Source: a virus | Reading direction: 5' to 3' (one strand) | Virus record (IMG/VR): IMGVR_UViG_3300047297_000301 | Location: 35,691 to 99,690 of that record | DNA length: 64,000 bases | In this document: positions 32,619 to 53,571 of the stretch, in pieces | Layout of the letters: every line of letters starts with the position of its first letter | Numbering within the stretch: position 1 is the first letter of the stretch | The notes under the pieces: model-generated | Database searches by the model: none | Told to the model about the DNA's origin: nothing | What the model saw: the letters and a program-made list of their open reading frames with translations, nothing else | Translations under genes and position numbers: made by a program

Positions 32619-32688
32619 AGTATGCGTTTCTTTCGTAAATTAAGTATATATTATACCCGTTTTGCAGTTTAGGGTCAAATGTAAAATT

Positions 32689-49532: not shown

Positions 49533-49641
49533 ATCTGGTGTGCTTGCACTGACCCAACCCCATGAGGAGTTATAGTGAAACCTTACACTATTACGACGAA
49601 TTGATGCGGTTTAGGGTCATAGTTCAAGTGCACACATGGAT
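49533..49641 (+). ncRNA. candidate rod-shaped RNA / structured leader
   Basis: long interrupted hairpin with central bubble downstream of TTGCTT-N16-TATAAT promoter. Confidence 0.45.
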
Positions 49642-49725
49642 AACACTGTTCAATGAGGACTACTATTTTTTGTTGCATGTGCAACATTTCTTTTTTTAAA
49701 CACTTATAAAGTGAGGTTTTTACCT

Positions 49726-50739
49726 ATGCGATATCAAACAAGAACAATTACCCGGGAACTGAAATCTGTGCCATTTGACAAGGCTTTCCGACTCTGTGAG
49801 GATGCAGCGGCCTTGGCGGTTGCAACCCAACAGCAAATCCTAGACGACCAATTTAATGCTGAAGTAGCCAGACTAGAGCAGGAGTATGCAGACTCCCACG
49901 AAGCCCCTAGTGAAACAAGCTTTGCAGATCAAGTTGCTGACCCTAAATTGGACAGACCAAAAGTAGCTAAGCAGGCACGACAAAGGGCTCTTGTAGAAGA
50001 GTTTATTCCACAGTATGGATTGGATACTACCTTGCAATTATATACCATGCCTGAAATTATTCGCTGGATTGCCAGAAACTACTCAGAACAGTGGCTATCG
50101 GAGATTTTAACAGCTGAGGGTCAGATAGATGGTAAGAAAGCAGCTAATGCTATTTTTGACTTCTCTCAAGACTGGGATAAAGGACTCTACTTCTTTTTAA
50201 TGCTAGATGCTAGAAGCAGCTACATTAAAACACAGTACAAAGGCGATGGTAGGAATTACTGTAGTTTAGTTCCCTTAATTCCTTATGCTTTTAAATTACT
50301 ACACTCTATTCCATACTCGAAGTGGGATAAGTCTACTCTTCACATGGTAGTTAATGAAAGTTTATGCAACTCTATGTTATGTGAAGTACCTGAAACAACA
50401 CGAGAAGAGTTACTTGAAATTCGAGAGTTGGGACTAGTATTTAAGACTGGTGAAAAAGCAGGCACAACAAGAAACGCAGCTTCAACATACCGACTAACTG
50501 GTGTTAATTCTACAAAAATCGGTGGATTACCTGAATTAGCACAGACTATGCTCACACAAATCTGGTGTGCTCACCCAACCAATAGAACCAAGTACATGGT
50601 TCTAGACCCACATAACTGGGACGCAATCCCATCCCCTTTAGTTGCAGAGCAGTTGTTTGCACCTATTGTAAAAGAAAAGTCAAGTCGTAAAAAGCCTGGT
50701 TCAGATGATAATAGCTACGACTTACCCTGGAATTTATAA
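49726..50739 (+). CDS. hypothetical protein
   Basis: 337-aa ORF, RBS GAGG, acidic DLPW tail. Confidence 0.65.
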   Translation: MRYQTRTITRELKSVPFDKAFRLCEDAAALAVATQQQILDDQFNAEVARLEQEYADSHEAPSETSFADQVADPKLDRPKVAKQARQRALVEEFIPQYGLDTTLQLYTMPEIIRWIARNYSEQWLSEILTAEGQIDGKKAANAIFDFSQDWDKGLYFFLMLDARSSYIKTQYKGDGRNYCSLVPLIPYAFKLLHSIPYSKWDKSTLHMVVNESLCNSMLCEVPETTREELLEIRELGLVFKTGEKAGTTRNAASTYRLTGVNSTKIGGLPELAQTMLTQIWCAHPTNRTKYMVLDPHNWDAIPSPLVAEQLFAPIVKEKSSRKKPGSDDNSYDLPWNL

Positions 50740-50740
50740 C

Positions 50741-51103
50741 ATGAAGTATACTAAAGAAATCACAGATAAATTGATCACAGACTATAGACTAGGTGTACCT
50801 GTAGCCACAATTGCTACAGAATTAGATGTACCCGAACGTAGTGTTATTGCTAAATTGAGCTCTCTGGGCGTCTACCTCAAAAAATCGTATGTCAACAAGC
50901 GTGGTGAGGTCCCAGTAAAAAAATCCGAGCACATCGAACGCATTGCACAATTGCTGGAGGTAGATGAGGAGACCTTGGAGTCCTTGGAGAAGGTCAACAA
51001 GCAGGTGCTTAAATTAATCGAGCACCGTTTGCAACACTCTGACCCTAAACCGCCCAAATCAGCACAAGCTCGCACAGAATCAGACTTATTTGCACTTAAT
51101 TGA
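50741..51103 (+). CDS. T5 A2-like DNA-binding protein (paralog 1)
   Basis: YT.E.T..L..DY..G..V..IA..L....RSVIAKLS..GVY.KK..KK..I...L.....ESLEK. Confidence 0.65.
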   Translation: MKYTKEITDKLITDYRLGVPVATIATELDVPERSVIAKLSSLGVYLKKSYVNKRGEVPVKKSEHIERIAQLLEVDEETLESLEKVNKQVLKLIEHRLQHSDPKPPKSAQARTESDLFALN

Positions 51104-51135
51104 CCCAGAACTGCGCTAAATCGGCCTAATCGAAG

Positions 51136-51171
51136 AAAAGCCCACTTAAATTGCTTTAAGTGGGCTTTTTT
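51136..51171 (+). terminator. intrinsic terminator
   Basis: AAAAGCCCACTTAAA-TTGC-TTTAAGTGGGCTTTTTT. Confidence 0.85.
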
Positions 51172-51244
51172 GCGTGTGTTTCTCAGGGTGCTGAAACTGT
51201 GTGCATTTGCTGCAGCTTAGGGTCAGAGAGCTGAGAATTCACAC

Positions 51245-51345
51245 TTGACAAGTTTTTGCACTCTAGAGTATAATGGCGCCAGCAGCAACCGCAAAAAATT
51301 TTAAGCAAAACAAAAGCCCCTACAACTTTCGCTGTAGGGGCTTTT
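51245..51345 (+). promoter_or_regulatory. orphan sigma70 promoter followed ~35 nt later by a terminator
   Basis: TTGACA-N18-TATAAT-GGCGCC then GCCCCTACA..TGTAGGGGC-TTTT. Confidence 0.7.
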
Positions 51346-51689
51346 GAAATATCCTTCGAAGTATAGGGAACACCGATATTTTTTAACTCTAGCAGGACTA
51401 TTAAGGTAATCAACCAGCCTGACCCTAAACTGTGGCAGTTGCCACATGCAGCCTTGGGTGATGAATCCCGCGCGAAGCTGTCTAGGTGAGTGTTGCACGT
51501 TTCAGTTTTCAACTGGGAACTCCCTGTCGAAAATATCCGTGGCTAACATAGTTTTGTGTGGTTGCGCACAACTGTTTTTTCAATTATTTTTACGACCCGC
51601 CACAGTTTAGGGTCAGTGATTTCGTGCAGTTGTCTCTGACTGGATATATTTTATGCACCCTCCGCAGTTTAGGGTCATTTCGCACCATT

Positions 51690-52185
51690 ATTTAAGCACC
51701 CGTAGCTAGGTCTTGTGCGCCTTTACAGAATGGTTTGCGCAACACCACTCAGTCGCTAGCGGGATTAGCCCGCATTACAGGATAAGTGTCCTGCTCTTTG
51801 GTTTAGATGATAGCTGTATTTATTTAAGGAGTTCTTTCTCCCCGAGTTCCTATAATATATGTTACTCTGAACCATTTCCTAGTTTAAGTAACGTACTCAT
51901 AGAGGAGTCGGCATGGGATAGAGGCGGGACATGCTGCCTAGTACTACTACTTTCCTAACACCAGCAAGTGGTACACGCTAGGGGTTTCGTCCTGACCCTA
52001 AGGTACAGCAGGTTGGGAGTTGGGAACTCTCCGTGACCGTGCTGTGAAGTCTTGGGTTTCGCCGAAATTACATCGGCTCATCAGAGGATTATAAAGGGCT
52101 GCAACTTAAGACCTTCAGTCGCAATTAAAAACTTATCCAGTTCTAGGAGAGCTGGTCTTGGTTTACCCATATTCTGCAATTTATA
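51690..52185 (-). ncRNA. large structured non-coding transcript containing a hammerhead ribozyme
   Basis: promoter at 52190-52218, no credible ORF, more than 10 hairpins. Confidence 0.65.
51990..52088 (-). ncRNA. hammerhead ribozyme (type I topology)
   Basis: UCCU-CUGAUGA-GCCGA/UCGGC-GAAA-CCC...GGG-UC^AGGA; all core nucleotides and three stems. Confidence 0.8.
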
Positions 52186-52189
52186 AGTA

Positions 52190-52218
52190 ATTATACACGA
52201 TTTGCACAACTACTTCAA
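52190..52218 (-). promoter_or_regulatory. sigma70 promoter driving ncRNA
   Basis: minus TTGAAG-N17-TATAAT. Confidence 0.7.
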
Positions 52219-52360
52219 GTAAGAAATTAGACACTCGTTGCAATCAGACTACTCACAAAACAGACTATTGATAAGTTGAAGATTTGAGGTGAGATTCATT
52301 TGCAGACGGACACCAACTTGCATTGGTATTCATTAAGCCCTTCCCGACTGTCTAATATAT

Positions 52361-52389
52361 ATTATACTTGAAAAACAGTTGAAGATCAA
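52361..52389 (-). promoter_or_regulatory. sigma70 promoter
   Basis: minus TTGATC-N17-TATAAT. Confidence 0.65.
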
Positions 52390-52420
52390 GTCAATATTTT
52401 TTGACCCTCAACTGCTGCAA

Positions 52421-52729
52421 TCAACGCAGGTTTTGGAGGATTGCTTCCAGTACTTCGTGGTTGGCTTTCTCTAGTGAGTCGAAAGTCTCTGGAGCAACAC
52501 CAACTCGGTTGGCGATTGCGTCAACAAGGTCAGCCTTCTTGACACGAGCAACACCAGAGGCTTTGTTCTTGGCTTGGTAAACTCCTTCTCTGGAGAGTTT
52601 TGCTACCACTGAGCGAGTGGTCTTGCCAAACATTGTTGCCAATGTTTCGACAGTAGCGCCAGCTTTGTAGTTGGCAACGAGCTGAGCGGTTTGCTCAGGG
52701 GTATAGTTTACGGGTTGGTTAGTCATCAT
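52421..52729 (-). CDS. T5 A2-like DNA-binding protein (paralog 2)
   Basis: NYTPEQT..KTTRSVVAKLSREGVY..KKAD..DSLEKAN. Confidence 0.7.
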   Translation of the reverse strand: MMTNQPVNYTPEQTAQLVANYKAGATVETLATMFGKTTRSVVAKLSREGVYQAKNKASGVARVKKADLVDAIANRVGVAPETFDSLEKANHEVLEAILQNLR

Positions 52730-52776
52730 ATGTCCTTTCAAATGGTTTCTGCGCTGTTTAAGATATAATTATACTA

Positions 52777-53250: not shown

Positions 53251-53571
53251 TTATATTGGCTTTGAATTAGCCAATGCTTCGAAAATCACTTTTAAAGCAT
53301 TTTTATTTGCTTTAGTTAATGATTCAATATCATTTTCGGGTAATCTCAAAATCGCCCCAATAGCGTCTGCGTGAATATCTTTTTTAACCGCAGATTCTCC
53401 GTTTTTGGTTTTATATTCTTTTTTAATATAAACCTTTTCTCGAGATAATTTAGCAACAATACTCCGAACAGTTTTTCCGAGATTATCTGCGATAATCTCG
53501 ACAGATAATCCGCTCTGATAATCAGAGATAATCTGAGCAGTTTGCTCAGGGGTGTAATTAATCGTTTTCAT
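53251..53571 (-). CDS. T5 A2-like DNA-binding protein (paralog 3)
   Basis: NYTPEQT..GKTVRSIVAKLSREKVY. Confidence 0.7.
   Translation of the reverse strand: MKTINYTPEQTAQIISDYQSGLSVEIIADNLGKTVRSIVAKLSREKVYIKKEYKTKNGESAVKKDIHADAIGAILRLPENDIESLTKANKNALKVIFEALANSKPI

Follow-up and report, generated by a model that had tools for sequence, protein, structure and literature searches.

The stretch of DNA analyzed here, called the window, comprises 64,000 nucleotides (nt) and is the last 64 kb of the 99,690-bp IMG/VR virus record IMGVR_UViG_3300047297_000301, which has terminal repeats. On its minus strand, from position 52088 to 51990, it encodes an RNA element that is a type I hammerhead ribozyme by all sequence and structure criteria examined; catalysis is predicted from the fold. 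We put a probability of roughly 0.75 on the reading that this ribozyme cuts a leader off a very abundant noncoding RNA (ncRNA) of ~0.66 kb, within a noncoding unit driven by the host RNA polymerase. An earlier note on this DNA, drawn up from its letters alone, had proposed that the hammerhead processes a phage ncRNA; that is still its most likely function, one consistent with the promoter, the terminator, the conservation and folding of the RNA, and the step in metatranscriptome depth at the predicted cut. The interest of the locus appears to rest less on the ribozyme than on the RNA apparently released.

The Hammerhead and Its Fold

Read directly, minus-strand positions 52088 to 51990 carry all the nucleotides that define a hammerhead, in the order UCCU, CUGAUGA, GCCGA-UGUAAUU-UCGGC, GAAA, CCC, a 55-nt insert, GGG, UC, and AGGA. 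The predicted parts are the following.

51990..52094, minus strand: whole type I hammerhead, with a candidate pseudoknot flank (52094-52090), stem I, core, stem II, GAAA, and an elongated stem III
U52088-U52085 with A51993-A51990, minus strand: stem I, 4 bp
52084-52078, minus strand: catalytic core strand C3-A9, CUGAUGA; CUGA-GA invariant in 50 homologs, N7 being U or C
GCCGA 52077-52073 with UCGGC 52065-52061, minus strand: stem II, 5 bp
52072-52066, minus strand: loop II, UGUAAUU
52060-52057, minus strand: G12, A13, A14, and A15.1 (GAAA), invariant in 50 homologs
ACCC 52057-52054 with GGGU 51998-51995, minus strand: base of stem III, in which A15.1 (A52057) pairs with U16.1 (U51995)
51999..52053, minus strand: distal arm of stem III, with AAG/CUU, ACAGCA/UGCUGU, GGU/ACC, and an apical GGAG/CUCC hairpin
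51993..51994, minus strand: predicted cleavage site between C17 (51994) and A1.1 (51993), a position that follows from the hammerhead fold; the triplet is GUC (51996-51994)

Both ends of the element exit via stem I, and stems II and III are closed by loops, the topology of type I; a local alignment of the relative L033 to the Rfam family HH9 shows the same arrangement. G10.1:C11.1 closes stem II directly after A9 in the window copy. Cleavage at the predicted site would leave an upstream piece with a 2′,3′-cyclic phosphate and a downstream piece with a 5′-hydroxyl (5′-OH). The bare core pattern occurs once in the window (0.06 expected), and a full descriptor, which requires the core, a G-C-closed stem II with 4 bp or more, stems III and I of 4 bp each, and UH, has one match in the window and none in 300 dinucleotide shuffles. 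On these features we take the element to be a true type I hammerhead acting in cis, in which stem I is short and open, stem II has 5 bp, and the arm of stem III is long and closed.

Conservation and Covariation

Homologous sites were collected by three routes: contigs encoding the neighboring 342-amino-acid protein (38-78% identical), in which the core recurs at an equal distance; a core scan that left stem II free, which gave further sites; and a metagenome scan with a 17-nt word located 3′ of the ribozyme. The metagenome scan found 45 related loci, 33 of them distinct, with CUGAUGA, GAAA, and GUC intact in all; because the query word sits downstream of the ribozyme, this conservation was not forced by the search. 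One search pattern fixed the three inner pairs of stem I and two pairs of stem III; the invariance of these pairs in loci found with it is uninformative, since the pattern required them, and the metagenome loci are free of that bias. The resulting alignment (A3) holds 50 distinct homologous sites from viral and metagenome contigs, cited below by L numbers where single contigs matter.

In the core strand only N7 differs among the 50 homologs, being U or C, while the other six positions (C, U, G, A, G, and A) never change; G12, A13, and A14 are equally constant, and A15.1:U16.1 is always A-U. The pair G10.1:C11.1 is G-C in 49 of 50, and the cleavage triplet is GUC in 47 and GUA in three, with position 17 never G. 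Two relatives, L006 and L004, have an additional U following A9; a chrysanthemum viroid hammerhead is known with a natural extra base there.

Imposed on A3, the hammerhead fold pairs 85.6% of cells (76.1% in shuffles), with a covariation score of 0.243; shuffles give 0.106 (0/500 reach 0.243), and slid partners give 0.06-0.075. In stem II, which is 98% paired, four of the five pairs show two-sided change across the 50 sequences; its variants include GCCGA/UCGGC, GCACA/UGUGC, GCUGA/UCAGC, GCUUG/CAAGC, GCCUA/UAGGC, GCUAG/CUAGC, and GCUC/GAGC. The base and arm of stem III show two-sided change in 13 of 20 pairs; the insert forms one unbroken arm, in whose two distal helices 11 of 13 pairs have changed in this way, and the apical loop is conserved (type UUCCCAA or ACUUCAAUA). 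Stem I has 3-5 bp, consisting of three invariant pairs and one or two variable ones, with compensatory changes in two distant relatives (CCCU/AGGG in L006, CCUU/AAGG in L004). The earlier note had described a complete hammerhead cut between 51994 and 51993 and had proposed a search for covariation across relatives; the description holds, with every core nucleotide present, the core conserved, and stems II and III covarying over the 50 distinct homologs.

A covariance model (R1) built from the window's ribozyme family scores the window ribozyme at 123 bits, its sole match in that genome. The model also detects compact type I hammerheads on unrelated phage contigs, with E values of 1e-5 to 1e-10. 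Such compact elements lie just upstream of genes (L008 1601-1666; L017 14359-14421; L087 4001-4063 and 6399-6461; also L012 and L016).

Comparison with Rfam

Scanned at Rfam gathering thresholds, the window yields six transfer RNAs (tRNAs) only. With permissive settings its sole sub-threshold match is to Hammerhead_3, at 20.1 bits against a threshold of 48.5. In the comparison with Rfam hammerhead models suggested in the earlier note, the one match thus stays below the threshold and has a different stem III. The type III fold implied by Hammerhead_3 (stem III CUUAAGU/ACCCAAG, triplet GUU) was rejected; it contains two mismatches, overlaps a leader hairpin that itself covaries, and is not kept by relatives, being absent from L121 and L021.

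Other phage hammerheads fare no better. L033 scores 20.2 bits against HH9 (threshold 52), the compact, textbook-like hammerhead of L087 reaches 18 of the 34 bits required when scanned in Rfam's E-value mode, and a gathering-threshold scan of L017, L087, L012, and L016 reports no hammerhead. Because compact phage hammerheads fail too, the Rfam miss is a property of the thresholds and not of the window RNA. The threshold test is therefore nondiscriminating for phage type I hammerheads, and Rfam-based annotation misses compact ones.

Pseudoknot and Competing Hairpin

A pseudoknot between loop II and the flank just 5′ of stem I had also been suggested. Pairing of the flank (52094-52090) with loop II (52072-52068) occupies 74.8% of cells, compared with 66.5% in shuffles, with a covariation of 0.187 against 0.081 (0/500). 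The middle pair is A-U in 17 and U-A in 10 of 50 sequences and unpaired in 19; L009 and similar sequences carry an uncompensated change, and distant subfamilies, in which the flank ends in CCAAC or CUAAC or is a tRNA, are unable to form the pairing. The suggestion thus has partial support from covariation, and in the window's subfamily only. According to Perreault et al. (2011, PMC3088659), some 40% of hammerheads have a pseudoknot between stems I and II, and a tertiary contact of that kind is plausible for the window's subfamily.

A competing hairpin after the cut site, put forward as a possible switch, finds no such backing. GGGU/ACCC, or better UUAGGG/CCCUAG, can form in the close subfamily only, where both strands are invariant and do not covary; L133, L165, and L142 have uncompensated changes that weaken it, and the distant L005, L006, and L033 lack it.

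The Transcription Unit

The features around the ribozyme suggest a minus-strand unit with its own start and end, the start of the ribozyme transcript being placed at about 52183.

52190..52218, minus strand: sigma70-like promoter, TTGAAG-17-TATAAT; the -10 element is invariant and the -35 element nearly so in L009, L007, and L002
52096..52183, minus strand: leader "module 2," in which GGG (52168-52166) and CCC (52098-52096) enclose two hairpins
52155-52137, minus strand: leader hairpin 1, CCAG/CUGG
52124-52099, minus strand: leader hairpin 2, UUGCGAC/GUUGCAG
51338..51993, minus strand: predicted 3′ cleavage product, a folded ncRNA of ~0.66 kb (up to ~0.69 kb if it extends to the U tract), based on conservation, covariation, and depth
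51311..51346, minus strand: intrinsic terminator hairpin, 16 bp followed by UUUUG, closing the unit; equivalents lie 650-790 nt after the cut in relatives

Leader hairpin 2 varies in a compensatory manner among relatives (UGCGAC/GUUGCA, UGUGAC/GUUACA, and UGGUGU/ACACCA). The Rfam 15 covariance models match no family in the leader, and neither a tRNA nor a transfer-messenger RNA was found in the window's copy. Relatives have two similar leader modules in tandem; the window copy lost the first, ~85 nt long, by deletion between two AUGGGU repeats. The module missing from the window (at 52171-52180) and kept by nearly all relatives reads GGGUGACAGC ... UUAAUUGUGG ... CCACAGCCC; its counterparts lie at 837-915 in L009, 7956-8059 in L007, and 8418-8538 in L002.

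Further upstream (region 52230-52389) is a second promoter-like site, TTGATC-17-TATAAT at 52389-52361 on the minus strand; the start after it, CAGUCGGGAAGGGCUUAAUGAAU, is kept even in L003, a distant relative that has no ribozyme. Its product may be a separate small RNA, or it may mark the true 5′ end of a longer precursor. On the plus strand, a sigma70 promoter at 51245-51274 that matches the consensus at 12 of 12 positions faces the terminator 51311-51346, which is bidirectional.

The RNA Downstream of the Cut

Most relatives keep a distance of 650-790 nt between cut and terminator. Conservation over the first 360 nt of the 3′ RNA (0.7-0.96) exceeds that of the flanking proteins, and the first 60 nt are nearly invariant, which suggests a sequence-specific partner. 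Several local helices covary, and their G-U pairs fit the minus strand only; in one example the pair is U-G in 21 sequences and U-A in nine. A global fold of the whole length was uninformative beyond these local helices. We found no coding signal in this RNA: no frame is conserved, there is no excess of third-position change, and insertions and deletions do not come in threes. A recurrent sense open reading frame (ORF) near +480 was discarded for the same lack of third-position bias and of indels in threes. Rfam 15 gives no family match, only terminator-like or chance sub-threshold matches. By these comparative signs the downstream RNA is a folded ncRNA of the minus strand.

Part of the stretch is contained in 19 RNA-designated runs, and the 24 runs listed span 14 studies. 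Depth was examined in the contigs of the four best runs, which are freshwater metatranscriptomes from one study. Summed contig depth is as follows.

50900-51143: depth 0-40
51144-51326: depth 0
51327-51997: depth 2e4-4e5
51998-52700: depth about 1e2-2e3

The upper step, between the bins 51937-51997 and 51998-52058, matches the predicted cut to the resolution of one 60-nt bin, and the lower edge coincides with the terminator. A segment specific to the window genotype (51571-51631, column identity 0.03-0.14) also keeps a depth above 1e5, so the step is not mere cross-mapping of relatives that have the conserved part alone. In these four runs the RNA has a far higher contig depth than the genes beside it. 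These data suggest that the 3′ product accumulates. Contigs of low depth (60-184) bridge the cut, as precursor or DNA would.

In two runs, contigs are joined to Illumina adapter at 51338/9, inside the 5′ arm of the terminator hairpin; this may be the processed 3′ end of the abundant RNA. A tandem 62-nt duplication occupies 51585-51677, with one copy of the dispersed motif described below in each unit, and contig variants skip one unit (joints 51615/51682 and 51616/51679). Apart from these "skip" joints, the contigs show no back-joint of the kind that a circular RNA would give, though its absence is not proven by this.

Proposed Role and Alternatives

In the reading that we favor, host RNA polymerase would start at ~52183 on the minus strand, and stem II, perhaps with the pseudoknot in the window's subfamily, would fold first. 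Closure of the long arm of stem III and of the 4-bp stem I would come ~190 nt into the transcript, and the RNA would then cut itself between C51994 and A51993, detaching a ~190-nt leader that retains the ribozyme and ends in a 2′,3′-cyclic phosphate. Because stem I has only 4 bp, the 3′ product would leave at once, making the cut effectively irreversible. The released folded RNA of ~0.66 kb would begin 5′-OH-AGGACGAAAC, run to the terminator at 51346-51311, and be the species that accumulates. In bacterial RNA decay a 5′-hydroxyl is a poor entry site for 5′-end-dependent RNase E; in Firmicutes, RNase J1 degrades 5′-hydroxyl ends instead. Poor entry of RNase E would fit accumulation of the 3′ RNA, and we infer that the purpose of the ribozyme is a defined 5′-hydroxyl end freed from the leader. 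Cleavage in vivo and accumulation of the 3′ product are indirectly supported.

Several points weigh against this reading. The element does not reach the gathering threshold of any of the Rfam families RF00163, RF00008, RF02275, and RF03152. Stem I is only 3-5 bp long, and a tertiary contact is supported in part of the family only. In the depth analysis each contig has a single depth value, the four runs belong to one study, and the contigs show neither strand nor true ends; drawn from a single study and strandless contigs, its result is suggestive and not proof of cleavage. The cut-site strand is also a copy of a dispersed motif, so that part of its conservation may have a DNA-level cause. In L033, L041, and L074 a terminator follows within 8-160 nt of the ribozyme; there the ribozyme would trim a 3′ end, and making a 5′ end is not its universal role.

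This last arrangement bears on the possibility, which we consider unlikely, that what is useful is the piece upstream of the cut (the folded leader modules and, in some lineages, a tRNA-Glu), left with a 2′,3′-cyclic phosphate end once the downstream RNA or terminator is removed, or else that the cut tunes how fast the downstream RNA decays instead of stabilizing it. In the three loci just named, nothing but a terminator or a short tail comes after the cut, and the ~85-nt leader module is the part most widely shared across subfamilies. In L006, L038, L118, and L122, moreover, a tRNA-Glu(UUC) or a degenerate tRNA-like copy stands between leader and ribozyme and abuts stem I, with its CCA 2-6 nt away. 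The positions are given here, with that of a fifth relative.

L006 1559-1634: tRNA-Glu(UUC)
L038 2375-2449: degenerate copy, below the Rfam tRNA threshold
L118 10812-10886: tRNA-Glu(UUC)
L122 415-489: tRNA-Glu(UUC)
L003 8246-8320: tRNA-Glu(UUC)

The cut, however, comes ~100 nt after the CCA and does not make the tRNA 3′ end; in the window's lineage the leader has a contig depth 100-1000x below that of the 3′ RNA, and the window copy has lost one of its two leader modules.

In support of the reading that we favor, L003 has the leader modules, the tRNA-Glu, and the core of the downstream RNA without a ribozyme, the tRNA standing at the ribozyme's place. Together with the relatives that have both, this fits a transcript position at which processing is always marked: what stays constant between the conserved leader and the sequence after it is a mark of this kind, be it a ribozyme, a tRNA, or both, and the side that counts as the product may differ between lineages.

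It is more improbable still that the ribozyme is irrelevant to the abundant RNA, which would then owe its 5′ end to a promoter of its own or to a host RNase, or would be made from the plus strand (promoter at 51245-51274). Contigs that carry no strand and no true ends leave room for this, and the full-consensus plus-strand promoter does point into the region. A plus-strand transcript from 51245 would begin, however, within 51144-51326, where depth is 0, and the G-U pairs of the RNA fit the minus strand only. Nor is there a minus-strand promoter-like site between the ribozyme and 51993, and the depth boundary coincides, to within one 60-nt bin, with a cut that had been predicted beforehand.

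The region could also act mainly as DNA, as an injection-stop or regulator-binding array similar to the iss region of phage T5, with a hammerhead-like fold that is conserved and catalytically idle; we give this very little weight. Its basis is a 14-nt motif, CTGACCCTAARCTG (also written CTGACCCTAAACTG), which with up to three mismatches has 26 matches in the window where 7.4 are expected. About 11 copies cluster within 49.6-52.4 kb (49607-52414), in both orientations and partly inside genes, and others lie at 32665 and 40572; one of the clustered copies, at 51992-52005, coincides with the 3′ strand of stem III together with the cut site. A promoter in L003 and one in L004 are each flanked by two copies in the manner of an operator, and T5 has 10 copies of a 15-nt repeat, TGTGCAAATCCGACA, in its 1.66-kb untranslated iss region. 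A role as DNA alone leaves unexplained the invariant unpaired core bases, the compensatory changes in stems II and III, the strand-specific G-U pairs, and the huge RNA depth, and roles as DNA and as RNA can coexist. We read the motif as a candidate DNA site for a phage protein, the cut site apparently satisfying both the motif's role and the needs of a hammerhead.

Other sequences complementary to the cut-site strand were noted in relatives. L004 (7949-8097, minus strand) has a variant ribozyme with stem I CCUU/AAGG and the additional U following A9; its stem II is enlarged by ~40 nt that include the CUGACCCUAAACUG motif, and this insert is complementary to the ribozyme's own cut-site strand. 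L033 (~1700-1740) has a segment CCUGACCCUAAACC ~45 nt upstream of the ribozyme that is complementary to the cut-site strand at 14 of 14 positions, and counterparts in L074 and L041 have one or two mismatches; these segments could provide an alternative pairing or simply be another copy of the motif. Cleavage in trans of other motif copies was considered and set aside, because the arm stays paired in cis after self-cleavage; only the copy at 51432-51419 has AGG after GUC.

A chance match to the hammerhead consensus is negligible as an explanation, and comparative data already refute it: very many windows were read and a bare core is expected 0.06 times in each, but the full fold appears in none of the 300 shuffles and ~50 homologs keep it with covariation.

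The Source Phage

Proteins encoded in the window include DNA polymerase, helicases, ribonucleotide reductase, terminase, and portal. The window's polymerase shares 49% identity with its counterparts in Vibrio phages pVp-1, Ceto, and PVo5 (Demerecviridae, the T5 family), so that it seems fair to label the source an uncultured, distantly T5-like phage. The ribozyme lies downstream of two convergent genes, in 1.3 kb of sequence that contain no credible gene; this gene-poor stretch and the polymerase identity uphold the earlier assignment to an ORF-free region of a T5-like phage. No cultured-phage nucleotide match to the ribozyme region or to the 7 kb around it was found by blastn. Small DNA-binding proteins are encoded nearby at 50705-51103, 52421-52741, and 53251-53571. 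Homology of the neighboring small DNA-binding proteins to T5 A2 could not be demonstrated, their matches being weak "transcription factor" ones only.

Comparison with Known Systems

Type I hammerheads are known from phages and prophages (Perreault et al. 2011, PMC3088659; Rfam RF00163, RF02275 HH9, clan CL00010). The window's ribozyme resembles them in its core, three-helix junction, open stem I, and intergenic phage setting; the loop II consensus of its family, UGNAA(A)U, is similar to that of the compact phage hammerheads L017, L087, and L012, and model R1 cross-detects compact examples. It differs from them in the conserved ~55-nt arm of stem III, with covarying helices and a conserved apical loop, and in being embedded in a long ncRNA rather than between protein genes. 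Neither the conserved long arm nor a placement in a long, abundant ncRNA of T5-like phages is described in the literature searched.

Theta (hepatitis delta virus-like) ribozymes have been linked to phage tRNAs and recoding (PMC10879173). As in that system, a small self-cleaving ribozyme stands directly beside a phage tRNA gene in L006, L038, and L118. The class is different, however: the hammerhead cuts ~100 nt after the CCA, and the window copy has no tRNA.

The untranslated iss region of T5 and its relatives offers a further comparison; that of T5 has been read as a DNA signal, with no RNA product described in the paper concerned (Davison, bioRxiv 10.1101/866236). The window's region is likewise gene-free over more than 1 kb, belongs to a T5-like genome, is better conserved than the neighboring genes, and contains short repeats. 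It differs in that R1 has no match in T5, pVp-1, Ceto, or PVo5 and that no sequence similarity was found; the T5 iss region contains no hammerhead core. More speculatively, and with the odds against it, the conserved gene-free region might go beyond a DNA injection-stop or operator array and act as an RNA gene (for example, in host take-over or counter-defense), next to an early small-gene cluster; the ribozyme would release its abundant ~0.66-kb RNA product, and the motif copy at the cut site would couple cleavage to whatever reads the motif.

To our knowledge, hammerheads are common in phage DNA and a product is known for almost none of them. A ribozyme tied to a defined transcript points to a concrete job for a phage hammerhead, that of defining the ends of a stable ncRNA, and to a widespread, uncatalogued RNA at the puzzling gene-free region of T5-like phages. 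If this RNA is functional, it adds an RNA player to the early program of the T5-like phage group.

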